Of a stretch of DNA of 64,000 nt, positions 17,534 through 63,633 are shown one piece after another; positions within the stretch are counted from its first letter, which is position 1, and each line of letters opens with the position of its first letter. The notes beneath the pieces were generated by a model. It ran no database searches. It was not told where the DNA came from and saw only the letters and a program-made list of their open reading frames with translations. Position numbers and translations under genes: made by a program. This DNA is from an uncultured Gammaproteobacteria bacterium (GTDB lineage: Bacteria; Pseudomonadota; Gammaproteobacteria; Magnimaribacterales; D2472), in contig CAZTGS010000004.1 of assembly GCA_964613455.1 (NCBI GenBank), positions 122 through 64,121 of the forward strand, written 5' to 3'.

Positions 17534-17537
17534 ATTT

Positions 17538-20223: not shown

Positions 20224-20226
20224 ATT

Positions 20227-37590: not shown

Positions 37591-37625
37591 AATATTTTTC
37601 CCTAATAGTTGTTTGTTTATATACA

Positions 37626-37642: not shown

Positions 37643-37715
37643 AAAAAGTAGTAAAAAATTGGATTATATGAGTTAAAACGATATTAATTATTCAAAAAAG
37701 GTGCAAACAAAACAA

Positions 37716-37898: not shown

Positions 37899-37913
37899 TA
37901 TATTATTTACTAT

Positions 37914-38012
37914 AAAAAAAAGAGCTGCTTTAAAATATGGGGGGGGGAGAAGCAGCTCTTTTAGTTTAAAAAAGAAAGAGCTGTTTAACATTAGGGGGTA
38001 AACAGCTCTTTC
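37914..38012 (-). terminator. tandem pair of related stem-loops (double terminator) with C-rich loops
   Basis: 13-bp stem AAAAGAGCTGCTT/AAGCAGCTCTTTT (37918-37962) and 14-bp stem GAAAGAGCTGTTTA/TAAACAGCTCTTTC (37974-38012), each followed by a U tract on the minus strand. Confidence 0.75.
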
Positions 38013-38046
38013 GGTCTTTATAGATCACGCACACGTAATCTACAAA

Positions 38047-39285
38047 TTAAAATTCTGGATAAGCTTCAACTCCTATCTCAGAAACATCTAATCCAGCATA
38101 TTGTTCTTCGTCAGTTGCTCGTATTGGCATAAAGCTATTTATTACAGATATTGCAATGAAACTCGCAATGAATGTAAAACCAGCAATAGAAATTACACCT
38201 AATGCTTGCATACCAAACGAAGCATCAGAAGTTAACGGTACGACCATTACGCCAAGAATTCCAACAATACCATGGGCTGAAATTGCTCCAACAGGATCAT
38301 CTAACTTCAAATTTTTATCAAAGAATAAGATTGATAAATAGACCAAAGCACCACCTGCAGATCCTATCAAAACAGCAGCTCCGGCAGAAGGGGCACTTGG
38401 TCCTGCTGTTATAGCTACTAGTCCTGCTATTGCACCATTCATGGCCATAGTTACATCCATTTTTCCGGTCATAACTAGACTCATTAATATTGCCGCAACT
38501 ACACCACCACAAGCGGCCATATTTGTATTCATAAATACTTGACTAACTGCTATTGCAGCTGCTTCGTTGCTTACTATTAATTCAGATCCACCATTAAAAC
38601 CAAACCAACCTAGCCATAGAATCCAAACACCTAATGCAGCCATTGGAATGTTTGATCCTGGCATTGGCAAGGATGTTCCATCAGGGGAATATTTACCTTT
38701 TCTTGGCCCAAGAACCATTACTACAGCTAAAGCTGCAGCAGCACCACAAAGATGAACTGTTCCGGATCCTGCATAATCTGAATATCCCATTGAGCTTAAG
38801 AAACCACCACCCCAGTTCCAATAACCTTGGATAGGATAGATAACTCCAGTTAGGACAATTGCGAACAAGAAGAACGGTAATAACTTCATTCTTCCTGCTA
38901 CCGCACCAGAAACTATAGACATTGCTGTTGCAACAAACACTACTTGGAAAAAGAAATCAGCTTGTTGTGAATAATCCATTCCATAAGGCATTCCAATATC
39001 CTCATTAGCTAATGAGGTCGACAGTCCAAACGAGTTAGTTCCTAAAATTGACGGCAAATAACCTTCAATTATAGTTGAAGCTGGGTACATAATTACAAAG
39101 CCACAGGCTAAGTACATAATACAGGCTATTGAGTATAGCCCGATGTTTTTAGTTACAATTTCAGATACGTCTTTCTTTTGAACAAGTCCTGCTTCTAGCA
39201 TGGTAAAACCAGCTGCCATAAACATTACTAGAGCTCCAGCCATTACGGCATAAAACGTATCTAAAGCAAATGCTATTTCTTCCAT
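38047..39285 (-). CDS. ammonium transporter Amt (second paralog)
   Basis: MAAGFTMLEAG; FFFQ.VF; DYAGSG.VH; WFGFNGGS; DDPVGAI.AHG. Confidence 0.95.
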   Translation of the reverse strand: MEEIAFALDTFYAVMAGALVMFMAAGFTMLEAGLVQKKDVSEIVTKNIGLYSIACIMYLACGFVIMYPASTIIEGYLPSILGTNSFGLSTSLANEDIGMPYGMDYSQQADFFFQVVFVATAMSIVSGAVAGRMKLLPFFLFAIVLTGVIYPIQGYWNWGGGFLSSMGYSDYAGSGTVHLCGAAAALAVVMVLGPRKGKYSPDGTSLPMPGSNIPMAALGVWILWLGWFGFNGGSELIVSNEAAAIAVSQVFMNTNMAACGGVVAAILMSLVMTGKMDVTMAMNGAIAGLVAITAGPSAPSAGAAVLIGSAGGALVYLSILFFDKNLKLDDPVGAISAHGIVGILGVMVVPLTSDASFGMQALGVISIAGFTFIASFIAISVINSFMPIRATDEEQYAGLDVSEIGVEAYPEF

Positions 39286-47849: not shown

Positions 47850-50800
47850 ATGAAAAAATTTCTTTTAGCTTTTTTACCGCTAGTAATGTTTACTACATTA
47901 ATCTCTGCTAACGTTGACACGACTGCAAGAATTAAAGGTTCTGTAAATATACCCGGCGCATCAATCGAGGCCGTTCATACACCAACAAACTATAAAAAGT
48001 CTGTTGTTGCTTCTGAAACAGGTAATTTCAACATAAACTTTTTACCTATCGGTGGTCCATACAGGATCACAATTCGTAAAGCAGGTTTTGATACTCAACA
48101 AATTGAAGTTGCTTCATTATCAGTATCTGATCCTCTTAAAATAACAGTCGTTATGGCTCAATCAGATCTAGATAATGTCGAAGTAGTAGGCTCACGAGTT
48201 GCTAGATCAACGGTCAGTAGTGGTAGTGTCTTATCAAGAGACCAAATTGATGAAATACCAACTATCACAAGGAATATTGCTGATTATCTTAAGTTTGATC
48301 CAAGGGTAACTATAAATAATGGTAACGCTAGATCTACTGAAGTTTCAGTTATGGGTAAGAACTCTCGTTTAAATGATTTCACTATTGATGGTGTTAGTTT
48401 TAATGATGCTTTCGGTTTGAACGATAGTGGTTTCGCTACAATGAAAAACCCAATCAGTATAGATTTCGTTGACGAAATAACTGTTGATATAACACCTTAC
48501 GATGCTTCAAAAGGTAACGCGACCGGTGGAACAATCACAGCCATTACTAAAAGTGGTACTAATGAATTTCATGGTTCTGCATATTACACCTCTCGTGATA
48601 AAGGTAATATTGGAGATCTCCCAAATGGTGAAGAATACACAGACTTTGAAGAAGAAGCTATGGCATTTACTTTTTCAGGACCGATCATTAAAGATAGATT
48701 ATTCTTTTTTGTAGGTTATGAAGAAAGCGAAGATATTAGACCTTCTTTATGGGGAACGTCTGATTCTAATGCTACAAATAAATGGGAAATCACATCTGCT
48801 CAAATGGATGCTATTTCATCTCATATGTTAAGCACTTATGGATACACTGCTGGTTCATACAACAGCATTACATATCCTACAACTCAAGAACAATATATTA
48901 TTAAACTTAATGGAAGTATTAATGAAGATCATAGAGCTGAACTTGTTTATCAGGTAACAGAAGATTCATTCTGGTCTAATTATGACCGTGCCTCACAACC
49001 AGTTTTTTCCAATAACTATTACGACATACCTCCTGAAACTGAAAGAACTACATTCACTCTTTATTCAGATTGGACAGATAGGTTCTCAACAAGAATAAGA
49101 ATAAGTGATCGTATGTTCACTCAGGACGCCAATTCCCCTGATGGTGGTTACGGTGGGCTATTTCCAGAATTCCATATATATGAAGGAAATGAAATTATTT
49201 ATGTTGGGCCTGATAGATATAGAGGACACAACTTAATTGAAGTTGATCAGCAACTAACTTCTATAAAAGCTTCTTATGACTTAGATGATCATTATCTAAC
49301 ATTTGGATATGAAACAGATGAATCAAGTGTCTATAACTCTTTTATTAACCGATATAACGGTGAAATAAACTTTAGAAGTCTTGATGATTTTTATGCAAAT
49401 ACTCATAGCAGAGTAGAAACTTTTGCTGTTGCTACTGATTATGGTGGCCCATTTTCATTGGTTCGTGATGATCCAACTCTTCCTGCTGCAAGATTTGATG
49501 TTGAAGAGAAAATAATGTTTATCCAAGATGAATGGCAGGTAAGTGATGTGTTGTCATTAACAGCTGGTATTCGTCGTTACGAATTTGACATCCCACAGCA
49601 AGCTATATTAAACCAATCATATTTATCTAATATTGGTTATGCTAATAACGCAACTGTAAGTTATAGAGTATCTCAACCAAGATTCTCATTTGATTTAGAC
49701 GTTTCAGATATGTGGTTTGGTGGGAATGATAATATTGTTTCTGCAGACTTAACTGGTGGTATTGGAGTCTTTCATGGAAGGCTTCCTAAGGTATTCTTTA
49801 GTAACGGTTTCGGAAGATCTAGTGCAGACTCTTTCTACAGCAGATTCTTAAGCTGTGCTGGTCCTTTACCTAACCTTGGTTCAGCTGCCACAACCGGCGT
49901 AACGGATCCTAGATTCTTTTGGTATAGAAGTACTGCTTCAACATGTGCTCCAAAAGATAGTTCTTCAGCTTACTGGAAATATACACATAGTAGTGATCCA
50001 GGCTTTGAAGGTCCTTCTTCAACAAGAAGTAATATAAAGCTTGCCCTTCAAACTGCTAACGGTTACGACATTACTGTTGAATATAATAACGACCAAGTTA
50101 AGCAAGATGTAGCTTTCAAAGACGCCTCTTTTGAAATAGAAAGCACTTTGGCTGATGGAAGAGTTACTAGTGATAGTGGTGAAAATACTTATCTTACAAA
50201 TACCCAAGACGGTGGTGGACATGCATTTACATTAACTGCTTCTAAAGAGTTTGATAATGGTATTTCTATGTATACAGGTTATACAAACATGGAAACAAGA
50301 GATGTTTTCGCTATGACTTCTGCTCAGCATAGTTCATCCTATGGTTACCAGCCTAGAGGTAACGGTGAAAATGTTCCAGAAGCTAGATCATCCTTTATGG
50401 CTGAAGATAAGTTTGTTATAGCTCTTTCTTACACTGCTCAATTGATTGGTGATAATGATACTAAATTCTCATTACTTGGAATTAGAAAATCAGGAGAGCC
50501 ATATAGTATAACTTTTGATGGTGATGCATATAACGGCAAAGGTCAAGATGGTTATGACTTAGCTTATATACCAACTGGTCCCAATGATCCTAAAGTTGCA
50601 TTCTCTAGCGCAGCTGCTGCTACTGAAGTCATGAATTTTGTTAATTCATCATGTGCTTCTGGAGCTAAAGGTACAATTATTGCAAGAAATACATGTACTG
50701 CACCAACTCAAACTAGAATTGATATGAGGATTACTCAGAACTTTAATGTAATGGACGGTCATAAAGTTATTGTTTATTTAGATATTCAAAACTTAATGAA

Positions 50801-50993
50801 TCTTCTTGATGAAGATAAGGGCTGGGCTCAAGAAGTTGGAAGTAACGTAAGTAAAGCTATAATGATAGATGGTGCTGATGCACAAGGTCGTCATATTATG
50901 ACTGGAGCTGATTCAGATGATAACTTCTTCTACTCTACATCTAATGGTCAATCTATGTGGCAAATGAACTTAGGTGTTGCTTATAAATTCTAA
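47850..50993 (+). CDS. TonB-dependent receptor, Oar-like, with N-terminal carboxypeptidase-regulatory-like domain
   Basis: signal peptide; plug motif NDFTIDG...ND.FGL; ..GG.I.A.TKSGTNEFHGS; FFF.GYE; C-terminal LGVAYKF. Confidence 0.92.
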   Translation: MKKFLLAFLPLVMFTTLISANVDTTARIKGSVNIPGASIEAVHTPTNYKKSVVASETGNFNINFLPIGGPYRITIRKAGFDTQQIEVASLSVSDPLKITVVMAQSDLDNVEVVGSRVARSTVSSGSVLSRDQIDEIPTITRNIADYLKFDPRVTINNGNARSTEVSVMGKNSRLNDFTIDGVSFNDAFGLNDSGFATMKNPISIDFVDEITVDITPYDASKGNATGGTITAITKSGTNEFHGSAYYTSRDKGNIGDLPNGEEYTDFEEEAMAFTFSGPIIKDRLFFFVGYEESEDIRPSLWGTSDSNATNKWEITSAQMDAISSHMLSTYGYTAGSYNSITYPTTQEQYIIKLNGSINEDHRAELVYQVTEDSFWSNYDRASQPVFSNNYYDIPPETERTTFTLYSDWTDRFSTRIRISDRMFTQDANSPDGGYGGLFPEFHIYEGNEIIYVGPDRYRGHNLIEVDQQLTSIKASYDLDDHYLTFGYETDESSVYNSFINRYNGEINFRSLDDFYANTHSRVETFAVATDYGGPFSLVRDDPTLPAARFDVEEKIMFIQDEWQVSDVLSLTAGIRRYEFDIPQQAILNQSYLSNIGYANNATVSYRVSQPRFSFDLDVSDMWFGGNDNIVSADLTGGIGVFHGRLPKVFFSNGFGRSSADSFYSRFLSCAGPLPNLGSAATTGVTDPRFFWYRSTASTCAPKDSSSAYWKYTHSSDPGFEGPSSTRSNIKLALQTANGYDITVEYNNDQVKQDVAFKDASFEIESTLADGRVTSDSGENTYLTNTQDGGGHAFTLTASKEFDNGISMYTGYTNMETRDVFAMTSAQHSSSYGYQPRGNGENVPEARSSFMAEDKFVIALSYTAQLIGDNDTKFSLLGIRKSGEPYSITFDGDAYNGKGQDGYDLAYIPTGPNDPKVAFSSAAAATEVMNFVNSSCASGAKGTIIARNTCTAPTQTRIDMRITQNFNVMDGHKVIVYLDIQNLMNLLDEDKGWAQEVGSNVSKAIMIDGADAQGRHIMTGADSDDNFFYSTSNGQSMWQMNLGVAYKF

Positions 50994-51007
50994 GAAATAT
51001 CTATAAT

Positions 51008-51040
51008 AAAAAAGGGCAGTTTATTCTGCCCTTTTTTTTT
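51008..51040 (+). terminator. intrinsic terminator after Oar-like TBDR
   Basis: AAAAAAGGGCAG-TTTATT-CTGCCCTTTTTTTTT. Confidence 0.85.
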
Positions 51041-51053
51041 GTTAAAATTTAGT

Positions 51054-51956
51054 ATGTCTACAACAATCCCAGAATTATCATTTAAAGATATTGAAAAAGG
51101 TGATCCAAAGTCTATTGAGTTACTTTCATTGGCTCTAGAAGATCATGGATTCTTTTCTATTATCGATCACGGCCTATCATCTGAGTTATTAGATAAATGC
51201 TATAAATCGTCGATAGATTTTTTTAATTTAAATGATGAGCTTAAGCTTGCTTATCACAGCAGAGCATCGAAAGGTGCTAGAGGCTACACACCAACAGGAA
51301 TCGAAACTGCAGTTGGTGAAAAGATAGCTGATCAAAAAGAATTTTGGCATCATGGACCAATCATTGACGAAACCTTTGACAAAAGAATATCAGAAAATCT
51401 TGTTATTAATGAGATAGATGACTTTAATAAAAATTTTGATGATTTATATCTTGAACTTCATTCGATTGGCTTAAGAGTTATGTCTGTAATAGCTCTGTCA
51501 ATTGGTCTAGATAAGAATTATTTTTTTGATTGGATTAATAAAGGTAATTCCTTATTAAGATCTATCTACTATCCTCCAATTGATGATGTTTCAAATTTGC
51601 ATAGGGCTAGGGCTCATGAAGATATTAATTTAATAACTCTTTTGGTTGGAGCAGAAGAGGGCGGCCTTGAGGTGTTAAATAAATCTGATGAATGGATTAA
51701 AGTTCAACCAAGCACTAACTCTATAGTTTGCAATATGGGAGATATGATGCAGTTAGTTACTGATAAAAAACTAAAAAGCACAACGCATAGAGTTATTCAA
51801 TATCAAGATCAGAGATCCAAAGCTAGATATAGTATTCCTTTTTTTCTTCATCCCTCACCTGATGTAACACTTAAATCAGTGTTTAATAAAGATGATAAAG
51901 GCATACTTGCTGATGACTTTTTAAATGATAGATTAAAGGCTATTAAGTTATACTAA
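51054..51956 (+). CDS. 2-oxoglutarate/Fe(II) dioxygenase, IPNS/DIOX_N family
   Basis: GFF.I.DHG; RGY; HED (HxD), THRV (distal His), RYSIPFF (RxS); start moved to ATG 51054. Confidence 0.9.
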   Translation: MSTTIPELSFKDIEKGDPKSIELLSLALEDHGFFSIIDHGLSSELLDKCYKSSIDFFNLNDELKLAYHSRASKGARGYTPTGIETAVGEKIADQKEFWHHGPIIDETFDKRISENLVINEIDDFNKNFDDLYLELHSIGLRVMSVIALSIGLDKNYFFDWINKGNSLLRSIYYPPIDDVSNLHRARAHEDINLITLLVGAEEGGLEVLNKSDEWIKVQPSTNSIVCNMGDMMQLVTDKKLKSTTHRVIQYQDQRSKARYSIPFFLHPSPDVTLKSVFNKDDKGILADDFLNDRLKAIKLY

Positions 51957-51959
51957 ATC

Positions 51960-53207
51960 ATGAATATTCTTAGCTTTCTACAAATTGGGATAGGTTTTGT
52001 TGGACTAATTGCACTTGCAGTTCCATTTTCTGACAATCCAAAAATTATCAACTATAAATATATTTTTTATGCAATTGTTGCTCAGTTAGTACTTGCAGTA
52101 ATATTTATTAAGCTTCCATTTATTACTATCTTTTTTGAATTTTTAGCTGAAGGGGTTACAGTTCTTCAGGATGGTACCGAGCAGGGCGCACAATTTTTAT
52201 TTGGATATCCTGGAATCGAGCCTGGTGCCTACCCATCACTTTTATCAACGTTTGCTTTTGGAATTCTTCCATATGTAATTGTTATGTCTTGTGTGTCCGC
52301 TGTGATGTGGTATTGGGGAGTCCTTCCTTTTTTAGTTAATGTTTTCTCAAAAGTTTGCCAAAGACTATTTAATATTGGAGGACCTATAGGTCTTGGAGCT
52401 GCTGCAAATATTTTTGTAGGACAAGTTGAGGCCCCGCTTTTGATAAGACCTTATTTAAGCAAGTTATCAAAAAAAGAACTTTTAATACTTATGACTGCTG
52501 GGATGGCAACTGTTGCAGGTTCTGTAATGATCGCCTTAATAACAGTACTAGAACCAAAGTTCGTTGATATAAATCTAATACAACATTTTATTACAGCATC
52601 CATTCTCTCTATTCCTGCAGCAATAATGTATGCAAATATACTCCTACCTTCAAATGAAGTTACAGATTTCACAGATGAGGAGACTCCCAAGGTATATAAA
52701 AATACTATGGACGCTATCACAAGAGGTACTTCTGATGGGGCAACCATTGCAATAAGTGTTGGTTCAATTTTATTAGCATTTATAGCTTTGGTTTATTTTG
52801 CAAATTCTTTCTTGGGTATGGTGACTGGGTGGTTTGGTTATAGTTTGTCAATTGAAATGATATTAGGATATGCGTTTGCACCAATAGCATGGCTTATGGG
52901 AATTCCATGGAGTGAAGCTCTTGTTGCTGGTGAGCTGTTAGGAATAAAGACAACCCTTAACGAATTTGTTGCCTATTACAGTCTTGCTAATCTTGAAGAT
53001 GGGTTGTTATCAGAACGATCAAAATTAATTACACTTTATGGACTATGTGGTTTTGCAAACTTCTCATCTGTAGGAATATTAGTCTCTGGTATTAGTGCAA
53101 TGTCACCTGATAGAAAGGGTGATTTAATTGCCGTATCTTTCAAAGCTCTAATTGGCGCAACTCTTGCATCATGTATGACAGGCTTGGTGGTAGGATGTTT
53201 TATATAA
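51960..53207 (+). CDS. nupC: concentrative nucleoside transporter (NupC/CNT)
   Basis: NIFVGQVEAP; GMATVAGSV; NEFVAY; LCGFANFSS.GI. Confidence 0.93.
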   Translation: MNILSFLQIGIGFVGLIALAVPFSDNPKIINYKYIFYAIVAQLVLAVIFIKLPFITIFFEFLAEGVTVLQDGTEQGAQFLFGYPGIEPGAYPSLLSTFAFGILPYVIVMSCVSAVMWYWGVLPFLVNVFSKVCQRLFNIGGPIGLGAAANIFVGQVEAPLLIRPYLSKLSKKELLILMTAGMATVAGSVMIALITVLEPKFVDINLIQHFITASILSIPAAIMYANILLPSNEVTDFTDEETPKVYKNTMDAITRGTSDGATIAISVGSILLAFIALVYFANSFLGMVTGWFGYSLSIEMILGYAFAPIAWLMGIPWSEALVAGELLGIKTTLNEFVAYYSLANLEDGLLSERSKLITLYGLCGFANFSSVGILVSGISAMSPDRKGDLIAVSFKALIGATLASCMTGLVVGCFI

Positions 53208-53841: not shown

Positions 53842-54957
53842 TTAAGTTTTTTCAACAAGAATTGAACAAACTGAATAACCTGCTCCAAAAGAACAAATCA
53901 CTCCTTTTTCACCTTTATTAAGATCATTGTCAGAGTTGAAAGCAACTAGTGAGCCTACTGAAGCTAAATTACCATATTTTATTATAGGCATTGGAATTAA
54001 GTCAGAATTGAAATCATCTGTTCCAAGAATTTTAGCAGCAATTAATCTAATCATTTTTCCATTTGCCTGATGCAACCAAAACTTAGAAATATCATTTGGA
54101 TTTATATCATTGTCTTTTAATTGTTCTAATATTAAAGATGCCACAAGAGGACAAACATCTTTAAAAACACTCCTTCCATTTTGGGTAAACAAAACTTCGT
54201 CACCATTCTTTTGATCATCTGCTGATCTGTTTAGATAACTAAAATCACTTCTTATATTATTTGAAAACTGTGTATGTAATTTTCTATCAAGTATTTTAAA
54301 GCTTTTTTTTGATTTGCTATTTTTTTGAACAATAGTAGCAGCACAAGCATCACCAAAAATAAAATGAATATCTTTTCTGGTGAAATCGACACATGGCGTT
54401 GAGATTTCTGGGTTTATTACTAGAATTGTATTAGCAAGACCAGAAGCTATATCGCTATATGCATTATTGATAGCAAACGTGGTTGATGAGCAACCAACCA
54501 GCATGTCATAGGCATAACCATTAATGCCAAGTTCAGTTTGAATTTCTATTGCAACAGATGGGTAATTTCTTGCGGCATGTGACGTCCCAAGAATGACTGC
54601 ATCAATATCAGAGGCAGTAACGTTAGCTTCTTTCATTGCTTTTTTTGCTGCAATGATCCCCATTTCAGCGTGAATTGATAGACAAGATTCATCCTCATTT
54701 CTTATATGAGGCATCATCCGACTTGTATCAAGAATTCCAGCTTTATCTATAACATATCTAGTTTTAATACCTGACGCCTTTTCAATAAAATCAGAAGATG
54801 AGTACGTCATTTCTTCTGCATCACCATTTTTAATAGCTTCATCATTTTTTTTATTAAAATCATCTACATAGGAATTAAAAGATGCAACTATCTCTTCATT
54901 AGTGATCTTGTCTTTAGGATGCCAAGTTCCTGTTCCAGCAATATGAATGTTATGCAT
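53842..54957 (-). CDS. fabH: beta-ketoacyl-ACP synthase III (long, PA3286-like FabH)
   Basis: Cys-His-Asn triad (VGCSS, WLHQAN, YGN); IFGD; CSFGAGYS; start moved to ATG 54957. Confidence 0.85.
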   Translation of the reverse strand: MHNIHIAGTGTWHPKDKITNEEIVASFNSYVDDFNKKNDEAIKNGDAEEMTYSSSDFIEKASGIKTRYVIDKAGILDTSRMMPHIRNEDESCLSIHAEMGIIAAKKAMKEANVTASDIDAVILGTSHAARNYPSVAIEIQTELGINGYAYDMLVGCSSTTFAINNAYSDIASGLANTILVINPEISTPCVDFTRKDIHFIFGDACAATIVQKNSKSKKSFKILDRKLHTQFSNNIRSDFSYLNRSADDQKNGDEVLFTQNGRSVFKDVCPLVASLILEQLKDNDINPNDISKFWLHQANGKMIRLIAAKILGTDDFNSDLIPMPIIKYGNLASVGSLVAFNSDNDLNKGEKGVICSFGAGYSVCSILVEKT

Positions 54958-54991
54958 AACTATATTTAAATTATTTGAGGTATTATAAATT

Positions 54992-55897
54992 ATGTTGTCG
55001 AATATCTCTAATAAGCTCGATGTTATTACCATTAATTTAACTCATAATAGTGAAGTTAATGGTCTTGTTTATATATGTCATGGAATGTCAGAGCATGTTC
55101 GAAGATATCATTGGTTTATAGAGCAACTAAACAAAGATGGTTTTCATGTTGTAGCTATTGATCACAGAGGTCATGGAAGATGGATTGAAAATGGTTTTCA
55201 GGAGGGTGTTTTTGCACAAAAGAATGGTTGGGATCTTGTAACCAATGATTTATTAAATCTAATCAGTTCTACAAATGCTGATTATCCAAATATTAATCAT
55301 TATTTATTTGCTCACAGCATGGGTTCTTTTATTGCACTATCAGCTATACAAAAAGAATTAAAACTTTCAGGCTTGATCCTGAGCGCTTCAACGAAAACAT
55401 CTTCATTGCTTTCTACCATTCAAGTCTTAGTTATTAAAATTATTACTTTAATAAATGGCAGAGCGTCTAAGAGTAAATTTTTTGATTCCCTAACTATGAG
55501 AACTTTTAATAATAAATTTTCGCCATCAAGAACACCAAATGACTGGATCTCCACTGATCCTGAAAATGTTGACGATTATACAAATGATCCTTTGTGTGGG
55601 TTTATTGCGTCTAATGGGGTATGGCTTGATATGGCAAATAGCTTTCAAACTATATTTAACAAAAAAATGTATCCTTCTTCTAATTTAAATATACCAATCT
55701 TAATTATCTCTGGTGACGAGGATCCTGTTGGAGAAAACGGAAAGGGCGTGGCTAGACTTTATAAGTTTTTAAAAAATATTTTCTATAATGTTGAATATAT
55801 TTTATTAAAAAATGAAAGGCATGAGATTCTTAGCGGAATTTCTAAACAATTGTCATATAATAACATCAAAGAATTTTTACTAAAAAATCAATTCTAA
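54992..55897 (+). CDS. lysophospholipase/monoacylglycerol lipase-like alpha/beta hydrolase
   Basis: HGMSEH..RY; DHRGHG; AHSMG; DP.CG; G..DPV; RHE. Confidence 0.88.
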   Translation: MLSNISNKLDVITINLTHNSEVNGLVYICHGMSEHVRRYHWFIEQLNKDGFHVVAIDHRGHGRWIENGFQEGVFAQKNGWDLVTNDLLNLISSTNADYPNINHYLFAHSMGSFIALSAIQKELKLSGLILSASTKTSSLLSTIQVLVIKIITLINGRASKSKFFDSLTMRTFNNKFSPSRTPNDWISTDPENVDDYTNDPLCGFIASNGVWLDMANSFQTIFNKKMYPSSNLNIPILIISGDEDPVGENGKGVARLYKFLKNIFYNVEYILLKNERHEILSGISKQLSYNNIKEFLLKNQF

Positions 55898-55902
55898 GAC
55901 CT

Positions 55903-56922
55903 ATGAAAAATTTATTCATCATTATAACTTGCCTTTCCTCGTGTCTAATTTCTCAAGAAATGAAACAGATAGATATTTCTTTTGAAGGAGAAGGCAGGAC
56001 ATACTTAATCTATAAACCTATTAATTTTATAAAATCCTCTCCAATTGACTTATTTATTGGTATTCATGGTTATGGAGGAACGGCATCTGGGTTTGAAAGA
56101 GAAACCACTGGAAATTTCAATAAAACTGCTGATAAATATAAGTTTTTAACTATATACCCTCAAGGCAAGATTTTTTATGAAAAAAAATTCTTAAGAAAAA
56201 CCTTCATTTCATCTTGGAACGACCTAGCAGGTTCAAAAACTATAACCTCTGTTGGCGAGACCTGTGCTGTAGACGCTGATATATATCCTCAGTATCCAAA
56301 CTGCAAATCTGGTGGAAGATGTTCATGGACAAGTTGTGTAAATGATTTAGGCTTCATAAAAGAAATTATAGATAGAACAAAAAATGAATTTAATATCAGA
56401 AACATATATGTTGCGGGAATGAGTAATGGTGGAATGATGGCTCAAGCACTCGCTTGTAAATATCCTGAATTATTTTCAGGTGTTATAAATGTTGTAGGTA
56501 TGCAGCATCAGGGGTTGAGTTGCAAACCAAATTCACCAGTTAATTTTATAATTTATGGCGGCGCTAAAGATACAACGGTTCCACCTGTAAATATAAGAGC
56601 TGCTGATGGTTACTTTTATGAGCCAATGGAGAATACTTTTGATGACTGGTCAAAACAATTTAATTGCAAGTCTCTTGTGAAATCTAAAAAAAACCAATTC
56701 GATAACATTAATGAAATATTGGCGTTCGACTGTGATAACAATGTAACTGTTACAAGTATTTTAAATAATGACAGTGGTCATCTTTGGCCAGGTGTTTCCG
56801 GCAGAGTGGGATACTGCAGAACTCCGGATCAAGATAAACTTAATTACGATAATTGCAAGGAAGCAAAAGTAAACCCTTGGGGTAATGATTATCTTATTTC
56901 TAAAATTCTAAGTTCTGATTAA
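55903..56922 (+). CDS. secreted Cys-rich esterase (PHB depolymerase/LpqC-like)
   Basis: signal peptide or lipobox LSSC; IHG.GG; YPQG; SWN; GMSNGG; D..VP; GH.WPG. Confidence 0.8.
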   Translation: MKNLFIIITCLSSCLISQEMKQIDISFEGEGRTYLIYKPINFIKSSPIDLFIGIHGYGGTASGFERETTGNFNKTADKYKFLTIYPQGKIFYEKKFLRKTFISSWNDLAGSKTITSVGETCAVDADIYPQYPNCKSGGRCSWTSCVNDLGFIKEIIDRTKNEFNIRNIYVAGMSNGGMMAQALACKYPELFSGVINVVGMQHQGLSCKPNSPVNFIIYGGAKDTTVPPVNIRAADGYFYEPMENTFDDWSKQFNCKSLVKSKKNQFDNINEILAFDCDNNVTVTSILNNDSGHLWPGVSGRVGYCRTPDQDKLNYDNCKEAKVNPWGNDYLISKILSSD

Positions 56923-57019
56923 TAAATATTGAACCTTTCAAAGCAATATACTAAAACTTGAGATTAATCCTGTTTTCAGTATTATGTAGGTACACATTTT
57001 TATTGGGAGAGTAAAAATC

Positions 57020-59350
57020 ATGTCGTCAATATACTTAAAACCACTTTTTGAAAAGAAATTAGACCCATTAACCTTGGTTCTTAGAGATATTTTTAAAGAT
57101 AATAATTATGCATTATCTTGTCTTGGAACTTTAACTCTAGGACTTGGGGTTGCTCAGGGATCAAATTTACAAGCACAAGAGCAAGTTGAAGAGATCATAG
57201 TCACAGCTTCTAAACGTGCTGAGAATATTCAAGATGTTGCAATGAGTGTCCAAGCAATTGGTGCTGCTGAATTAGATCTTAAAAACATTAAAGGGCTTGA
57301 TGACATTGCTAATTTATCTCCTGCAGTTACCTTAGATGCTGGCGGACCAGGTAATTCATCTTTTTATATTAGAGGAGTCTCTGATGGTGGTTTTGGTAAC
57401 CCTTCGGGAGCAGCATCAACAACTTCTTTATATCTAGATGATCAACCTCTAACTACTATTGGTCAAACTCCTGATCTTCATGTCTTCGATATAGAGAGAG
57501 TTGAGATTCTTAGTGGTCCACAAGGTACTTTATACGGATCAAGCTCAACTTCTGGAAACATAAAAATTATTACAAAAAAACCAGACATGGCTGGCATTGA
57601 CTATGGTTATGATGTTGATTTAGGCGTAATAAGAGATGGATCAAACGATCAATCTTTCGAAGCCTATATGAACATGCCTCTTGGAGAGAATGCTGCAGTT
57701 AGGCTTAGTGCATATGACTTAAAAGAGGGAGGTTGGATTGACAATAAACTCACATCTAAAACCTTTACTAATAGCGGATACACTATTGATAACAGTGAGT
57801 TTGCTCAAGATGATTACAACGAATTAAATAAAACTGGTTATAGACTTCGATTTGCATCACAAATTGGAGAGCATGATCTAGATTTATCTATACTCGATCA
57901 AAGCTCTACATTTGGAGGATCTTGGGAGTCAGATGAAGCAGTAGGACCAAGGGCTAATTCAAGATTTACCGATGAATATTTCAATGATGATTTTAGCCAA
58001 ACCTCACTTTCTTTGAGTGGTGATATTAATGACAACATGGAATATATCTTTACTACGTCCTCTTTCGATAGGGATGTTGAATATACATATGACTATTCTG
58101 AATATGTAGAATATTACAATTATGATGGACCAACTTATACATGTGATTACTATGATTATTATTATTATGGAACTATTTCTGGATGTCAGGATCCAAGAAT
58201 GTCCTATACACAAATTGATGATCATCAAAGAGATTCTTATGAATTGAGAGTCCAGTCAAAAGGTGATAGTGGCTTTCAGTGGGTTCTTGGGGCTTTCTCA
58301 GAATCATCTAAACGTGATTATCAAATAGCATATATGTGGCCAGGTATGAATCCTGGAAATCTTTCATTTCAACCAACAAATGGTCAGTGGTGGAATTTAG
58401 ATAATATTAGAGAAGAGGAAACAGAAGCTATTTTTGGAGAAGGTTATCTTGATTTAAATGATAAAACTAAACTAACGGTTGGCTTCAGATCATATGAGCA
58501 AGACACGACAGTTAATGCAAAAGATGGTTATTTTGGTGTATTTGATGGCGTAGATAAAATATTTAAATCTAATGATTCAGGAGTGGTGCCTAAAGTAAAT
58601 ATTGCTCATAATATTGACGATGACACTATGATTTATGGAACTTATTCTGAAGGTTTTAGAGCCAGTGGTATTAATAGGGTGAGGCCTGCACAAACGGCAT
58701 TCATTCCAGAAACTTATAAATCTGATTATTTAGAAAGTCTTGAATTTGGTTTTAAATCAACAATGGCTGATGGAAAACTAATTTTAAATGGAGCTTATTT
58801 CATGATGGATTGGAATGATTTTCAATCTACAACATATAACTTAGATTTTTCACCTGTTGCTTTTGTAGATAATGTTGGTAACGCTGAAATAGACGGTTTA
58901 GAGCTAGATGCTACTTATAAGGCAAGCGATTCCTTAACTTTATCAGCTTATCTTGTTTCTAATGACCCATCGCTATCACAAGATTATTTTGATGTATCTG
59001 GTGTTCTTCAGGCAAATGCGGGCAATAGATTAGCTTATGTTCCTGAATTATCCTATGTCTTAGGTGTTGATAAAATCTTAAGTTTATTTGGTAAACCTGG
59101 ATATTTCTCTCTAGATTATAGCCACACTGGAGACAGATACACCAGTCAAGCAAATGACTTGAAGTTACCATCATATGCTATAGCAAATATGAGATTGGGA
59201 CTTGAATCAGATAATAGATCCATAGAAATGTATATTACTAATGCAACTGATAAAAGTGGTTATCAATCAAGGTATAATGATTTTGGTGATATCAGAAGAA
59301 CTCAAAATAAACCAAGAGTTATTGGTTTAAGGTTTAGATACAGGTATTAG
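57020..59350 (+). CDS. TonB-dependent receptor
   Basis: TonB box EEIIVTA; IRG; Y.DD.P; DIERVE.L.GPQGTLYG; C-terminal GLRFRYRY. Confidence 0.93.
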   Translation: MSSIYLKPLFEKKLDPLTLVLRDIFKDNNYALSCLGTLTLGLGVAQGSNLQAQEQVEEIIVTASKRAENIQDVAMSVQAIGAAELDLKNIKGLDDIANLSPAVTLDAGGPGNSSFYIRGVSDGGFGNPSGAASTTSLYLDDQPLTTIGQTPDLHVFDIERVEILSGPQGTLYGSSSTSGNIKIITKKPDMAGIDYGYDVDLGVIRDGSNDQSFEAYMNMPLGENAAVRLSAYDLKEGGWIDNKLTSKTFTNSGYTIDNSEFAQDDYNELNKTGYRLRFASQIGEHDLDLSILDQSSTFGGSWESDEAVGPRANSRFTDEYFNDDFSQTSLSLSGDINDNMEYIFTTSSFDRDVEYTYDYSEYVEYYNYDGPTYTCDYYDYYYYGTISGCQDPRMSYTQIDDHQRDSYELRVQSKGDSGFQWVLGAFSESSKRDYQIAYMWPGMNPGNLSFQPTNGQWWNLDNIREEETEAIFGEGYLDLNDKTKLTVGFRSYEQDTTVNAKDGYFGVFDGVDKIFKSNDSGVVPKVNIAHNIDDDTMIYGTYSEGFRASGINRVRPAQTAFIPETYKSDYLESLEFGFKSTMADGKLILNGAYFMMDWNDFQSTTYNLDFSPVAFVDNVGNAEIDGLELDATYKASDSLTLSAYLVSNDPSLSQDYFDVSGVLQANAGNRLAYVPELSYVLGVDKILSLFGKPGYFSLDYSHTGDRYTSQANDLKLPSYAIANMRLGLESDNRSIEMYITNATDKSGYQSRYNDFGDIRRTQNKPRVIGLRFRYRY

Positions 59351-60209
59351 TAATAAGTTCTTCTAAAATTTTTGAAAGCTCTTTGGGGCTTTCAAAAAAT
59401 GGAAAATGCCCAGTATTATCCATTATCACTATATTCTTATCTACAGTATTTGCGTGAATATCATTCTCAGGATTAAATCTTGCTAACTTGTCCTTCTCGC
59501 CGTAAATGAATGAGGTATTTTTAATTTTACTTATATCTTCAGCTTTGTAGGCTGAACATGCTTTAAGATCATGAGACATTATTTCTTTTTGGGTTTGGTT
59601 GAATAGTCTCTTTAAGGGATATACATTTATTTCTCGTTGCGGATCGTTCTCTATATTCTTAGTTCCATATGGTGATTTTATAGTTCCTTTACTCCTTCCA
59701 TAAAAACCAGCTCCCATTGTGCCAAATGTTTTAGCTTGAACTTTCGTCTCAGGAACATTAAACACCCCATACTTTGTCATAAATTCGTTAGCTTGATCAA
59801 GGTTGCCTTTGGCATGCTGTAATAATATTTCACCAACCATAAGTGGGTAGCTAGTATTCATTAAAATACTTAATTTACAATCCAGTTTCAAACTCACATC
59901 TAAAGCAATTAATCCGCCCATAGAATGCCCAATAAGAATAGGATTCTCAATACTCATTTTTTTAAGAAGTTGGATTAAGAATTCAGACATCTCTTCAATA
60001 GAATAAAGAACTTCGCCTGTTGTAAATCCATGACCCGGAAAATCTAGTGAGAATACGTTTGAGGACGAGTAAAGCTGAGACATATCAATCATGGAACCAA
60101 TTCTATGATCCATTCCAGCACCGGGAAGTATAAATATATTAGACTTAGGATCTTCTATTTTGTTGTGTTCAAATACGTGTGCTTTATGATTTTTTAATTC
60201 TATAAACAT
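59334..60209 (-). CDS. alpha/beta hydrolase
   Basis: PGAG; D.PGHG; GHSMGG; GEKD; GHFP..E. Confidence 0.88.
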   Translation of the reverse strand: MFIELKNHKAHVFEHNKIEDPKSNIFILPGAGMDHRIGSMIDMSQLYSSSNVFSLDFPGHGFTTGEVLYSIEEMSEFLIQLLKKMSIENPILIGHSMGGLIALDVSLKLDCKLSILMNTSYPLMVGEILLQHAKGNLDQANEFMTKYGVFNVPETKVQAKTFGTMGAGFYGRSKGTIKSPYGTKNIENDPQREINVYPLKRLFNQTQKEIMSHDLKACSAYKAEDISKIKNTSFIYGEKDKLARFNPENDIHANTVDKNIVIMDNTGHFPFFESPKELSKILEELITNTCI

Positions 60210-61665
60210 TTTTTATAATCGATATTATTAATAGTAAATTTATAAGTAGCAATGGTACAGAAAAAATTACCATAATCCACTTAAAAGAATCAACTCCTCC
60301 AATAAACATTAGTAATGTAGGCTGAATTACTAATAAAAGAGCATATATCAGCCTTAAATTTGATGAACTTTCAGTTTCAGATGACTTCATTGAGGCATTA
60401 GCAAGTACATAAGATGACGAATCATATGTGGTGCATAAAAATATTATGCAAATAACACCAAAGCCTATTAATAAAAATTTGCTATATTCAAGAGAGCCAA
60501 TAGTCTCAACAATAAGCTCTTCCCTAGTCATTATTTTATTTTCTATAAGAAAGGGTGAATTTAGGATATTTGTCTCAAATAGACTTATTGATAAATTCGA
60601 AAGGATAGACATACTAAATATACAACCAAAACTGCCTATCAAAATAGTTCCCAGAATAACCTGTCTTAAACTTTTACCATTTGAGATGTTGACTATAAAA
60701 GCACCTACCATTGGAGCAAGTGCCATCCACCATGCCCAGTAAAAAACGCTCCAATCTTTACTAATGACTGTCCCTGTTTTAACACTAAGTTCTGGATATT
60801 TTGAAATAAGAAAACCAAAAGATTCATATGAGTTTATTAATATATATTTAGTAGGACCTAATATTAGAATAAGCACCAAAAAAAACATTACTAAAAAAAT
60901 ATTTAAATTACTGAGTTTTTTTATACCCTTATCTATCCCAAGATATGCACTAGTAGCAAAAATAGATAAGCAAAAAATAATCGTAATAATATCAAGCTGA
61001 GCAGTTCTCTCAATTAAAAAAATTTTTGAAATAATTGTAGATATTAACGGAAATGAGAGTCCTAAACCTACACCCGCTCCGCATAAAATCGCACCTATAA
61101 ATAACGTATCAAATACAATCTCACTAAATTTATTTTTAGAATTAAAGATTCCAGAAAATGTTAATTTTGTTTTTGGGTTTATTGTTAGAGCCAATGAAAA
61201 AGCTATTGCTGGGAGGCAGTAGATCGCCCAAGCTGTAAAAGACCAATGAAATAAAGGATAGGCTCTAGAATAACGTAAAACTTCAGCTTGATCAGAATCA
61301 TTAGTATTTAAAACATTATAGTAATCAATCCATTCCACTGTTGCCCAATATAACAAAGCTGCTCCAATACCAGCTGCAAAAAGCATAGATCCCCATGAGA
61401 AGAAAGAATAAATTTCTTTATTATTTATATCAACTTGAATAGATCCATATTTAGACAAGGAAATAAATATTAAAAATAAAAATACAAAAAGACTACCGTA
61501 CATATATGTACTCTCAAAAGTAGTAGAAAGTTGACCATAAATTTTACTAAGAGTTACAGCACTTCCTATTGGATCTGAAAGAACATATATTGAGAGAACT
61601 ATTGATAGTACAATTGTTATCGTAATTACAGTTTTATTCCATTCAGTACTTATTTTAGAAAACAT
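60184..61665 (-). CDS. BCCT-family transporter
   Basis: SW.SMLFAAGIG; FHWSF..W.IY; W.VFYWAWW; 12 TM. Confidence 0.92.
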   Translation of the reverse strand: MFSKISTEWNKTVITITIVLSIVLSIYVLSDPIGSAVTLSKIYGQLSTTFESTYMYGSLFVFLFLIFISLSKYGSIQVDINNKEIYSFFSWGSMLFAAGIGAALLYWATVEWIDYYNVLNTNDSDQAEVLRYSRAYPLFHWSFTAWAIYCLPAIAFSLALTINPKTKLTFSGIFNSKNKFSEIVFDTLFIGAILCGAGVGLGLSFPLISTIISKIFLIERTAQLDIITIIFCLSIFATSAYLGIDKGIKKLSNLNIFLVMFFLVLILILGPTKYILINSYESFGFLISKYPELSVKTGTVISKDWSVFYWAWWMALAPMVGAFIVNISNGKSLRQVILGTILIGSFGCIFSMSILSNLSISLFETNILNSPFLIENKIMTREELIVETIGSLEYSKFLLIGFGVICIIFLCTTYDSSSYVLANASMKSSETESSSNLRLIYALLLVIQPTLLMFIGGVDSFKWIMVIFSVPLLLINLLLIISIIKNVYRIKKS

Positions 61666-63633
61666 ATGTCAGAGAATATTTTTATTAAAAATGCGCTAAA
61701 AAAGGCGCTTGAATTGTTAAATAATAATAGTCTAAATGAGGCCGCTGAACAACTTAATACAATTCTTCAAAAAGATTCTCAAAATATTGAAGCATTGACT
61801 CTGTTAATTCAAATCTCTATTAAGCAAAGCAATCCTCGTGAAGCTTTAAAAATAAATAAATTATTGCTATCAGTTCTTCCAGAAAACAAAGAATATTTGG
61901 AACAGATTGTAAAAATATATAAATATCTTAGCGATAACTTAAATTATATTAAGTCTTTAGAGAATCTTCATAATATTCATCCCACAATTGAAACTGCAAG
62001 AGAGCTATCAAATCAGTATCTTAATAATAATGACGAAGAACAAGCTAACGAAATTATCCAGAGCTTTTTTGAAAAAAATAAAAATTATGCGGATTTATAT
62101 AAAGGGATAAGACATGCAAAATCTGGCAGATTAAAATTAGCAGAAGAATGTTATAAAAAAGTACTATCCAAAGATAAAAATAATGTAGATGCATTGAGAC
62201 TTCTAGGATTGGTTGCTTATCGATTGAAAAATTACAATGTTGCAGAAAAATTATTTATTAATTCACTTCAATTAAATCCTTACTTTTCACTTGCCTGGGA
62301 TAACCTAGCTAAACTTTATAGAATTCAAAATAAGTTATCTAAATCCATACCAGCATTTGAAAACCTAATTAAATTGGATTCTAATAATTTTGAAGCTCTT
62401 GTTTCTTTGGGAACAATTTATACAAAACTAGCCAGATATGATGATGGGATAGACTCCTACAAGAAAGCACTTTTAATAAATCCTAATAATGCACGAGTTT
62501 ATTTGAGTTTAGGGCATGTTCTCAAAACACTTGGTAGAAGAGATGAATGCGAAAAGGCTTATGAAGATGCAATCAAACACTTTTATTTGTCTGGAGAGGC
62601 ATATTGGAGTTTAGCTAATCTAAAAACTTATATGTTTTCTGATGATCAAATTAAAAATATGGAAAATGCTCTTCAGGAAGATATGCATCCTGATGAGTTA
62701 ATTCAAATGCACTTCGCCCTTGGTAAGGCATATGAATCGAGAAAAGACTACGCTGCCTCTTTTAATAATTATCAAAAAGGTAATTGGAATCAGCGAAAAA
62801 AAATTGATTACAATTCAGAAAATCAAAAAATATCAACCGACGAACAGATTGATTTTTTTACAACTAATAGAGATTTGTTGAATAAGCATGTTGGGCATTC
62901 TGCTTCAGACCCAATTTTTATCTTGGGTCTCCCAAGAGCAGGTTCCACTCTCATCGAACAAATTCTTTCATCCCATTCTCAGATCGAAGGTACCCAAGAG
63001 CTCCCAAACATACTAACAACTTCAAAAAAAATTAGAATGCAAAATGAAACAGTTGGTTATCCACAAAATATTTTAAATTTATCAAATAATGAGTTTATAA
63101 AATTAGGTAAAGACTACATAGAAGACACAAGATGGGCGAGATCATCAAAACCATTTTTTATCGACAAGATGCCCAATAACTTTTTTCATATAGGACTTAT
63201 AAAGCTTATTTTGCCTAATGCAAAAATTATTGACGCTAGAAGAAATCCTTTAGATGGTTGTTTTAGTTGCTTTAAACAATATTTTGCAAAAGGCCAGCAT
63301 TTTACCTACGACTTAGATGATATAGCTCGATACTATAAGGATTACCTGAGATTGATGGATTTTTGGAATAGTCTTTATCCCGATGCTATTTATACGGCTC
63401 AATATGAGCATATAATTAGCAATCCTGAGACTGAAATTAAGAGCTTGTTGAAGTACTGTAACGTTGATTTTGAAGATAGTTGCTTGGAATTTTATAAATC
63501 TAATAGGCCTGTAAAGACAGCTAGTTCCGAACAAGTAAGACAGCCTATATATAAATCTGGACTAGATTATTGGAAAAATTACTCAGATAATCTAACAATA
63601 CTTACAAACCATTTTCTGGACACAAATGAATAA
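61666..63633 (+). CDS. TPR-containing sulfotransferase (Sulfotransfer_3/TPST-like)
   Basis: many TPRs followed by PIFILGLPRAGSTL (5'-PSB), DKMPNNF, RNPLD (3'-PB), TAS..QVR.PIY. Confidence 0.9.
   Translation: MSENIFIKNALKKALELLNNNSLNEAAEQLNTILQKDSQNIEALTLLIQISIKQSNPREALKINKLLLSVLPENKEYLEQIVKIYKYLSDNLNYIKSLENLHNIHPTIETARELSNQYLNNNDEEQANEIIQSFFEKNKNYADLYKGIRHAKSGRLKLAEECYKKVLSKDKNNVDALRLLGLVAYRLKNYNVAEKLFINSLQLNPYFSLAWDNLAKLYRIQNKLSKSIPAFENLIKLDSNNFEALVSLGTIYTKLARYDDGIDSYKKALLINPNNARVYLSLGHVLKTLGRRDECEKAYEDAIKHFYLSGEAYWSLANLKTYMFSDDQIKNMENALQEDMHPDELIQMHFALGKAYESRKDYAASFNNYQKGNWNQRKKIDYNSENQKISTDEQIDFFTTNRDLLNKHVGHSASDPIFILGLPRAGSTLIEQILSSHSQIEGTQELPNILTTSKKIRMQNETVGYPQNILNLSNNEFIKLGKDYIEDTRWARSSKPFFIDKMPNNFFHIGLIKLILPNAKIIDARRNPLDGCFSCFKQYFAKGQHFTYDLDDIARYYKDYLRLMDFWNSLYPDAIYTAQYEHIISNPETEIKSLLKYCNVDFEDSCLEFYKSNRPVKTASSEQVRQPIYKSGLDYWKNYSDNLTILTNHFLDTNE

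Follow-up and report, generated by a model that had tools for sequence, protein, structure and literature searches.

Near-constant pairing of a TonB-dependent transporter with a tyrosine-sulfotransferase-like enzyme in Proteobacteria suggests sulfation of the transporter's own surface loop

TonB-dependent transporters (TBDTs) are among the best-studied outer-membrane proteins, and we know of no report that any of them carries sulfate, or another enzymatic modification, on a loop that binds the ligand. Bacterial protein tyrosine sulfation itself is known, as far as we are aware, from one narrow case, that of RaxST and RaxX in Xanthomonas. We describe here a TBDT gene and its partner in a stretch of 64,000 nucleotides (the window) of contig CAZTGS010000004.1, from an uncultured gammaproteobacterium; this DNA has 32% G+C, and its nearest relatives are SAR86 genomes. 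The partner, named ST below, is a cytoplasmic enzyme made of tetratricopeptide repeats (TPRs) and a sulfotransferase domain that resembles protein-tyrosine sulfotransferases (TPSTs). The window is the SAR86 version of a widespread two-gene module of ST and TBDT, and the pairing is far more general than a single window could show. Its near constancy suggests that these bacteria sulfate a surface loop of their own transporter, a chemistry that is plausible and unproven. In its general form, the proposal is that Proteobacteria possess a cytoplasmic, TPR-guided, TPST-like enzyme, encoded beside a dedicated TBDT, which sulfates tyrosines in one of that transporter's extracellular loops; we put it forward tentatively, granting it somewhat less than an even chance. 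The features on which the argument turns are the following.

57020..59350, plus strand: TBDT gene, 776 amino acids, plug and 22-strand barrel (Pfam, AlphaFold2, Foldseek).
58082..58207, plus strand: tyrosine-rich acidic segment, residues 355-396, predicted to form the top of strand β7 and extracellular loop L4 (AlphaFold2).
58091..58117, plus strand: family signature D358-Y-S-E-Y362-V-E-Y-Y366, consensus [DE]-Y-[ST]-[DE]-Y-x3-Y (alignment of 128 ST-linked TBDTs).
61666..62865, plus strand: TPR superhelix of about 11 repeats, residues 1-400 of ST (Pfam TPR families, AlphaFold2).
62893..63630, plus strand: TPST-like sulfotransferase domain, residues 410-655 of ST (Sulfotransfer_3 at 2.8e-44; profile against the PDB).

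The linkage was explored from both sides. With patterns drawn from the TBDT only, in one genome per GTDB species, the best 80 loci were kept; TBDT identity there ranges from 27 to 85%, and the loci belong to several orders of Alpha- and Gammaproteobacteria (SAR86, Halieaceae, Porticoccaceae, Steroidobacteraceae, Lysobacterales, Caulobacterales, Sphingomonadales, Nitrospirillum and Marinicauda). A full-length homologue of ST (35-68% identity, tblastn with the window ST) lies within 10 kb in 72 of these 80 loci, and in 67 of the 72 it is directly adjacent and co-oriented, either immediately upstream of the TBDT (61 loci, with some 50-100 nt between the two genes) or immediately downstream (6 loci). 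Four SAR86 loci have ST downstream of the TBDT with a betaine/carnitine/choline transporter (BCCT) gene, with or without a hydrolase gene, in between, and one further linked locus has it downstream on the opposite strand. ST is missing from 8 of the 80, two of which are on contigs shorter than 4.5 kb. Conversely, patterns drawn from the ST domain only picked 80 loci in metagenome contigs, where a TBDT of the family is directly adjacent in 50 cases (48 of them co-oriented) and within 10 kb in 7 more, mostly in the SAR86 arrangement. In the other 23 the contig leaves no room for the partner (12 loci) or has room on one side only (10), and a single locus, L128, has 3 kb or more on either side and yet no TBDT; among the ST-picked loci that show the transporter or have such flanks, it is present in 57 of 58. 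Linkage found from both directions (72/80 and 57/80) bears out the genomic co-occurrence asked for by an earlier, sequence-only reading of the window, and this co-occurrence is close to obligate both ways.

All-against-all clustering of the open reading frames (ORFs) of the TBDT-picked loci yielded no third conserved gene. The only conserved families are the TBDT (79 loci) and ST (71 loci), other high counts being antisense shadows, and the next real gene families reach at most 15 of the 80 loci. Pairwise identities of ST and of TBDT correlate (r = 0.90 for 112 pairs; Mantel p = 0.001), with a median identity of 47% for ST and 34% for the TBDT, and where one ST is flanked by two TBDT paralogues the tyrosine motif described below is found in both. 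Co-divergence and this pattern of paralogues fit a unit inherited together, and the evidence that ST and TBDT are functionally linked is strong. A search of the literature with the terms sulfotransferase, TonB-dependent receptor, tyrosine sulfation, TPR and SAR86 turned up nothing relevant on the pair. Separately, variation in copy number was seen at L146 (6689-11473), L150, L106, L058 and L069, where one ST is followed by two tandem TBDT paralogues, both with the motif, or two ST paralogues stand beside one TBDT.

In the window itself the two genes are parted by two others, read from the opposite strand:

59334..60209, minus strand: alpha/beta hydrolase (Pfam Abhydrolase_6/1), between TBDT and ST.
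60184..61665, minus strand: BCCT transporter (Pfam BCCT at 1.3e-92), between TBDT and ST.

The sequence-only reading had entered these genes as a caveat. They are indeed there, and prove to be a SAR86-specific insertion into an otherwise contiguous pair. The insertion is old, because SAR86 orthologues at 50-54% identity keep the exact gene arrangement of the window. The hydrolase is syntenic in the SAR86 orthologous loci and absent from most loci outside SAR86, while a BCCT homologue lies close to the pair at 7 of the 80 loci picked by TBDT and at about 25 of the 80 picked by ST, and so in other marine lineages too. At one end of the insertion, the start of the BCCT gene (61665) abuts that of ST (61666) with zero intergenic bases, which means that each promoter must sit inside the other gene. 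At the other end, the convergent 3' ends of the TBDT and hydrolase genes overlap by 17 nt (59334-59350).

The tyrosine-rich segment that drew attention to this locus, at 58082-58168, translates as YTYDYSEYVEYYNYDGPTYTCDYYDYYYY (TBDT residues 355-383) and has the composition first given for it: 14 Tyr, 6 Asp/Glu and no Lys, Arg or His in 29 residues. Its tyrosine density exceeds chance: against a background of 5.5% Tyr in the rest of the TBDT, 14 or more Tyr among 29 residues have a binomial probability of 8e-11, which becomes about 6e-8 on correction for all windows of that size in the protein; the next-richest ORF of the 64-kb window has at most 7 Tyr per 29 residues. The segment is also a family feature and no private low-complexity expansion. 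Homologues from 84% down to 40% identity retain Y355, D358, Y359, Y362, V363, Y365/366, Y373, Y378, Y380 and Y382/383, and the core persists down to about 25% identity. In distant relatives the richness falls to 6-13 Tyr around a core that is typically SDYSDYSYFYD; in SAR86 the Tyr count of L4 has expanded to 14-18, and this extreme richness is specific to the lineage. The signature emerges from an alignment of 128 ST-linked TBDTs taken from the two independent samplings, TBDT-picked and ST-picked. Position 358 is D in 116 of the 128 and E in 5 more (D/E 95%), position 359 is Y in 126 (98%), 360 is S or T in 103, 361 is D or E in 100, 362 is Y in 127 (99%) and 366 is Y in 120 (94%), the window's own version being DYSEYVEYY. 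Y359 and Y362 rank within the 40 most conserved positions of the barrel, and Y362 and Y366 are the sole near-invariant aromatic residues of the extracellular loops. Within the segment lies a further feature:

58142..58186, plus strand: C375-x13-C389 sub-loop in L4, a possible disulfide (from the sequence).

The two cysteines, 13 residues apart, and the in-frame (TAT)4 run (codons 380-383) are as first described, and a similar Cys pair is found in many marine members of the family. In one SAR86 subclade (P0060, P0067 and P0087; alignment A1, columns 430-460) the equivalents of C375 and C389 are jointly missing, a loss that fits a putative disulfide dispensable as a unit.

The transporter that carries this segment is ordinary in its overall design. 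Pfam recognizes a Plug domain (PF07715, 7.7e-16, residues 70-179) and a TonB_dep_Rec_b-barrel domain (PF00593, 3.5e-30), and the AlphaFold2 model, based on 71 homologues, shows the usual plug and barrel with a strand pattern that fits 22 strands (predicted local distance difference test, pLDDT, 77; predicted TM-score, pTM, 0.80). The best Foldseek matches of this model are FyuA (4epa, 6e-36) and FhuA (1by3, 1e-32), with target-normalised TM-scores of 0.78-0.88. The fold is thus shared with these siderophore-type transporters, while sequence identity is just 15-18%, and no transporter of the FyuA/FhuA type is known to be sulfated post-translationally or to be paired with a sulfotransferase. The region of the L4 motif is covered by alignment to no solved TBDT. 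Counting strands from the plug end, β7 spans residues 340-359 and β8 residues 394-413, so that residues 360-393 make a connection of 34 residues. This connection must be the extracellular loop L4, because the periplasmic turns of the model are just 2-5 residues long, and this layout places the conserved D-Y-x-E-Y at the top of β7 and the start of L4. The model thus answers the question of topology that accompanied the earlier reading: the tyrosine segment is predicted to be extracellular and not buried in the barrel wall. For residues 362-390 of L4 the pLDDT is below 50, a low confidence that is consistent with flexibility. Tyrosines flanked by an acidic residue are found at D358-Y359, E361-Y362, E364-Y365, D376-Y377 and D379-Y380, with no basic residue in 355-383, and the segment, as modelled, would fit the profile of an accessible, unfolded, acid-flanked candidate acceptor.

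The sequence-only reading had itself offered an alternative in which the segment forms an unmodified cage of aromatic side chains around quaternary amines. Cation-π contacts do allow Tyr-rich sites to bind quaternary ammonium groups, and, in line with this alternative, a BCCT gene is embedded between the two genes in SAR86 and present near the pair in other marine lineages. The further claim that ST stands nearby without functional meaning is contradicted by two-way linkage over 160 loci and by co-divergence. Moreover, the extreme Tyr richness is found in SAR86 only, while the conserved core of two acid-flanked tyrosines makes no cage, and small amines may need no TBDT, since the window encodes a general porin (Porin_4) at 28354-29259. 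An unmodified cage beside a meaningless neighbour is, to us, very improbable.

The second partner, encoded at 61666-63633 on the plus strand (655 amino acids), was announced as a cytoplasmic enzyme with TPRs and a Sulfotransfer_3 domain, and so it proves: TPR hits are many, the Sulfotransfer_3 match is at 2.8e-44 and there is no signal peptide. When a profile of the catalytic domain alone (A4) was searched against the PDB, its best matches were TPSTs (8w5z at 6e-15, TPST1 5wrj at 1e-14 and TPST2 3ap1 at 4e-11), aligned over nearly the whole domain; cytosolic sulfotransferases of the SULT type match weakly, at 1e-4 or worse. Conservation, judged over 25 diverse STs, is concentrated in invariant blocks: PIFIVGLPRAGSTLxEQILSSHSxVEGTxELP, FIDKMPNNFxHIGLIxLILPNAKIIDARRHP, FKQxFARGQxFTY and RAVRTASSEQVRQPIY..W. 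Four features of the active site can be placed in the window:

62920..62952, plus strand: 5'-phosphosulfate-binding loop ILGLPRAGSTL with R424, aligned with TPST GVPRSGTTL.
62998..63000, plus strand: E445, candidate catalytic base (GTxEL), invariant.
63220..63267, plus strand: 3'-phosphate-binding motif AKIIDARRNPLDGCFS (R525, R526, S534), aligned with TPST LLMVRDGRASVHS.
63505..63573, plus strand: C-terminal motif RPVKTASSEQVRQPIY..W with S620, aligned with TPST 'ERSTDQVIKPV..W'.

Among the 25 STs, P423, R424, G426, S427 and T428 of the first loop are invariant or nearly so (R424 strictly), and E445 aligns with the second Glu of the TPST1 'GEE' and with the Glu of the CurM sulfotransferase 'PPEL'. 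The 3'-phosphate motif IIDARRxP...FS has two invariant arginines, R525 and R526, and a serine, S534, conserved to at least 90%. T618, S620, Q623, V624, R625, P627 and W636 are invariant at the C-terminal end, where the motif S-[ST]-[DE]-Q-V-x-x-P..W is common to the ST family and TPSTs. R424, E445, K501 and S620, all invariant, align with R78, E99, K158 and S285 of TPST2, residues whose catalytic roles are reported by Teramoto et al. in 2013. In general, sulfotransferases need a basic residue, a serine and a Glu or His base (PMC6637879). The domain is thus predicted to be a sulfotransferase of the type that uses 3'-phosphoadenosine-5'-phosphosulfate (PAPS), with protein-tyrosine sulfotransferases as its nearest solved relatives, and the label 'TPST-like' holds, as the best solved-structure matches of the family profile are such enzymes and the catalytic positions are invariant. 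The family of this domain is very large, with 10,239 clusters at 50% identity (E<=1e-30). Giant proteins of 1,650-2,800 amino acids with 3-5 copies of the ST domain were also noted (P0241, P0242, P0246 and P0251).

The likeness to animal and plant TPST1/TPST2 (5wrj, 3ap1, 8w5z) extends to the 5'-phosphosulfate-binding loop, the catalytic Glu, the Lys, the 3'-phosphate-binding motif and the C-terminal motif, and TPSTs favour acid-flanked tyrosines in unfolded segments, a description that the TBDT motif matches. By contrast, TPSTs are type II membrane proteins of the Golgi lumen, without TPRs, which act on proteins already in the secretory pathway, whereas ST is cytoplasmic, carries 6-11 TPRs at its N-terminus and lacks the insertion with Arg101, its activity being predicted from the sequence. 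The catalytic domain looks like that of a TPST, but the protein itself is no TPST. The TPR part takes us to other relatives. Its model shows helix pairs over residues 3-400 (pLDDT 75-97), and the top Foldseek matches of ST are the TPR domain of O-GlcNAc transferase (OGT; 1w3b, 8e-14) and SPINDLY (7y4i), which are closest in sequence as well as in structure. The number of repeats varies from 6 to 11, shorter members of the family starting at about residue 154. ST and OGT/SPINDLY are built alike, with a long TPR superhelix at the N-terminus and a protein-modifying type of transferase at the C-terminus, except that the catalytic domain of the latter is a GT41 glycosyltransferase using nucleotide sugars, in eukaryotic nucleocytoplasmic enzymes that have many substrates.

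How the pair might work can be outlined. The TPR array would capture the still-unfolded TBDT precursor in the cytoplasm, much as OGT and SPINDLY select their protein substrates through TPRs, and the ST domain would move sulfate from PAPS onto one or more tyrosines of the motif; the modified precursor would then be exported by Sec and inserted by the β-barrel assembly machinery (BAM), and the sulfotyrosines would end on the ligand-facing extracellular loop L4, where they would place a fixed negative charge next to an aromatic surface, helping to capture the ligand. That this particular ST sulfates the loop of this particular TBDT before export is, in our opinion, possible while falling a little short of probable. 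Modification before export is known from other gene pairs: at aah-aidA, tibC-tibA and hmw1C-hmw1A, the gene of a modifying enzyme sits beside that of its outer-membrane or secreted substrate, and modification takes place in the cytoplasm before Sec export. The layout of ST and TBDT, with the modifier directly upstream of the outer-membrane protein gene, matches theirs, whereas those enzymes glycosylate (with heptose or hexose) adhesins of the autotransporter or two-partner-secretion type, with no sulfation, no TBDT and no TPRs.

As to the role of the modification, the loop L4 of FhuA binds both ligand and phage. Of the interpretation first proposed for the locus, sulfation of the loop by ST gains from co-occurrence, from the extracellular L4 and from the TPST-like domain, while evasion of phages, suggested as its purpose, is unlikely, the motif being nearly invariant across two proteobacterial classes and not diversifying. 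Because of this invariance, a role of the motif in ligand capture or gating is more plausible. The ligand may, on admittedly weak inference, be a cationic nitrogen compound, because the neighbours that recur near the pair include the BCCT transporter as well as a basic amino acid/polyamine antiporter (APA family), a Rieske oxygenase nearest GbcA, a class-III aminotransferase or an aldehyde dehydrogenase, the latter group in 8-15 of the 80 TBDT-picked loci. A loop both anionic and aromatic would suit cationic nitrogen ligands, so that the aromatic-cage idea becomes complementary to sulfation and not exclusive of it.

The closest bacterial parallel for the chemistry is the raxX-raxSTAB cluster of Xanthomonas. 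RaxST sulfates RaxX in the cytoplasm, and this PAPS-dependent sulfation of a tyrosine next to Asp in an export-bound product resembles the action proposed for ST; the genes of enzyme and substrate are adjacent, as they are here. There are differences too. RaxST has no TPR domain, unlike ST; RaxX is a precursor of 60 residues, akin to those of ribosomally synthesized and post-translationally modified peptides, that is processed and secreted by RaxB/RaxA, whereas the conserved partner of ST is a 22-strand outer-membrane transporter; and the RaxST-RaxX cluster is confined to Xanthomonas, when the 10,239 clusters of the ST family form a far larger set. A search beside the pair found no conserved ORF of 25-95 amino acids that might encode a RaxX-like precursor, the recurrent families being out-of-frame or antisense shadows of ST, TBDT and BCCT, and no peptidase-containing ABC exporter or adaptor of the RaxB/RaxA type is conserved, since across the 80 loci there are just TBDT and ST. 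A system of the RaxST-RaxX type was therefore rejected, neither small precursor gene nor peptide exporter being conserved.

ST might nevertheless modify another protein or peptide, be it an unlinked RaxX-type secreted peptide or Tyr-rich surface proteins, the TBDT serving as the receptor or uptake route for the product or being merely co-regulated. RaxST/RaxX shows that bacteria sulfate a secreted peptide, and L128, the one ST locus that lacks a TBDT despite sufficient flanks, adjoins a divergent gene for a secreted protein with a DUF5122 beta-propeller and Calx-beta (L128:6340-8442, minus strand) that has a run of seven tyrosines (LNYYYYYYYAFD) and is a possible alternative substrate. On this account the absence of a conserved small ORF or peptide exporter with the pair would be a handicap, and near-obligate, one-to-one adjacency with a single TBDT family would be hard to explain; we consider it distinctly improbable.

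Several points weigh against sulfation of the transporter by its neighbour. To begin with the most direct, sulfation of the TBDT and its part as the acceptor both stand as proposals. PAPS supply in SAR86 is doubtful, because the SAR86 assemblies of Dupont et al. 2012 (PMC3358033) lacked enzymes for sulfate uptake and assimilatory reduction and the 64-kb window contains no cysDNC genes; a literature search for SAR86 with PAPS or cysC returned nothing relevant. Against this doubt, SAR86 STs retain every PAPS-binding and catalytic residue. Arg101 of TPST2, which contacts the peptide, sits in the insertion that the ST family lacks, and the catalytic domain of ST is poorly modelled (pLDDT 40-80, pTM 0.51, from an alignment of 63-69%-identical sequences only), which is why Foldseek with the ST model returns TPR proteins only. 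In SAR86, TBDT and ST are on separate transcripts. Contigs from seawater metatranscriptomes cover both genes, with depths, in four metatranscriptomes, of up to 12-38 on the TBDT against 0-7 on ST, and none of the contigs runs across 61554-61827. At six TBDT loci whose 10-kb flanks are complete, the motif is retained and no ST is nearby. Finally, gene linkage by itself would fit an enzyme acting on an imported substrate just as well.

This last point leads to an explanation in which the pair is an operon for processing a substrate: the TBDT would import a small molecule or peptide that is phenolic or hydroxylated and perhaps cationic, ST would sulfate this cargo or a metabolite, for storage, detoxification or osmolyte synthesis, and the DY-x-DY motif would be an unmodified element of ligand binding or gating. 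TBDT genes often sit beside enzymes that act on the cargo; the six transporters that retain the motif without an adjacent ST fall in with such a role, as do the recurrent BCCT, APA-family antiporter, GbcA-like Rieske oxygenase, class-III aminotransferase and aldehyde dehydrogenase genes. The relatives of the catalytic domain are also ambiguous, since sulfotransferases of the small-molecule type, CurM and OLS (4gbm, 4gox), come second and score almost level with TPSTs against profile A4 (9e-13 for CurM, about 1e-12 for the two), and in a single-sequence search with ST the CurM domain outscored the TPSTs; the catalytic Glu aligns here too. These domains, it must be said, are embedded in polyketide synthases, sulfate the hydroxyl of a β-hydroxyacyl group on an acyl carrier protein, and have neither TPRs nor a TBDT partner. 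Processing of a cargo would leave unexplained the conserved 6-11 TPRs of OGT/SPINDLY type; the conserved unit includes no inner-membrane transporter and no other pathway enzyme, the cytosolic small-molecule SULTs match only weakly, and ST is better conserved than the TBDT in tight co-divergence with it. We see this explanation as unlikely on balance, while taking it seriously.

A few other features complete the description of the transporter gene and its surroundings:

56958..56985, plus strand: weak promoter-like site TTGAGA-16-TATTAT, 35 nt upstream of the TBDT start (consensus scan).
57020..57175, plus strand: signal region, with a conserved, unusual extension of 30 residues (LKPLFEKKxDPLT..DIFKDNN) before the hydrophobic core.
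57188..57208, plus strand: TonB-box-like segment EEIIVTA, residues 57-63 (read from the sequence).

The TonB-box-like segment aligns as xxIxVTAxK in all 128 family TBDTs (128/128), and the protein ends in ...RFRYRY, with the C-terminal aromatic residue looked for in outer-membrane proteins of this kind. The N-terminal extension of about 30 residues (57020-57109) is kept among SAR86 homologues, with a helix at residues 16-26 in the AlphaFold2 model; relatives of the Steroidobacteraceae type have long basic n-regions instead (MTRSRKRKLxR...). That this extension might be a universal recognition 'leader' was rejected, many marine members having ordinary signal peptides. NCBIfam returns for the TBDT only generic siderophore-receptor models, under their cut-offs, and neither NCBIfam nor Pfam has a model dedicated to either partner. 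Rfam, applied to the entire window, picked out one tRNA only, hence no riboswitch that might hint at the ligand, and a scan of the region for promoters and terminators gave sites no commoner than in shuffled sequence, with the one weak promoter-like site before the TBDT. Upstream of the transporter (53842-56922) lie a KASIII-like gene (minus strand), a lipase-like Hydrolase_4 gene and a secreted esterase resembling polyhydroxybutyrate depolymerases; these genes, and the alpha/beta hydrolase gene on the other side of the TBDT, keep their synteny in SAR86 lineages that have diverged by 50%. Further upstream (47850-53207), a second TBDT-like outer-membrane protein (CarboxypepD_reg, Plug and OMP_b-brl_4; 1047 amino acids) is followed by a 2-oxoglutarate/Fe(II) oxygenase and a Na+/nucleoside transporter, a trio that is syntenic in other SAR86 contigs too. 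Elsewhere in the window, two ammonium transporter genes stand side by side on the minus strand (36310-39285), and genes for phosphate scavenging (PhoD-like phosphatase, a PhoB/PhoR-like two-component pair, PHO4 transporter, PPK2, Ppx/GppA, phytase and glycerophosphodiester phosphodiesterase) are scattered, at 3582-4691 and 12498-35140, around a type II secretion cluster (15668-24190; secretin GspD, GspE, GspF and pseudopilins J and K).

SAR86 is reported to rank with the most abundant bacteria of surface seawater that have yet to be cultivated; it is a major heterotroph there, and its genomes hold disproportionate numbers of TBDTs (PMC3358033). If the loop of the present transporter is sulfated as proposed, it would be the first sulfated outer-membrane transporter and would belong to the first widespread system of bacterial protein-tyrosine sulfation. 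With about 10,000 clusters at 50% identity in the ST-domain family, spread over Alpha- and Gammaproteobacteria of soil and sea and including SAR86, a common post-translational modification would so far have escaped notice in thousands of bacteria from both habitats, and studies of structure or binding made with unmodified recombinant TBDTs of this family would miss a key feature. Even if ST acts on the cargo, a large, uncharacterised and tightly linked enzyme-transporter module has been defined; and should the transporter itself be the substrate, our understanding of how SAR86 captures its nutrients would be affected.

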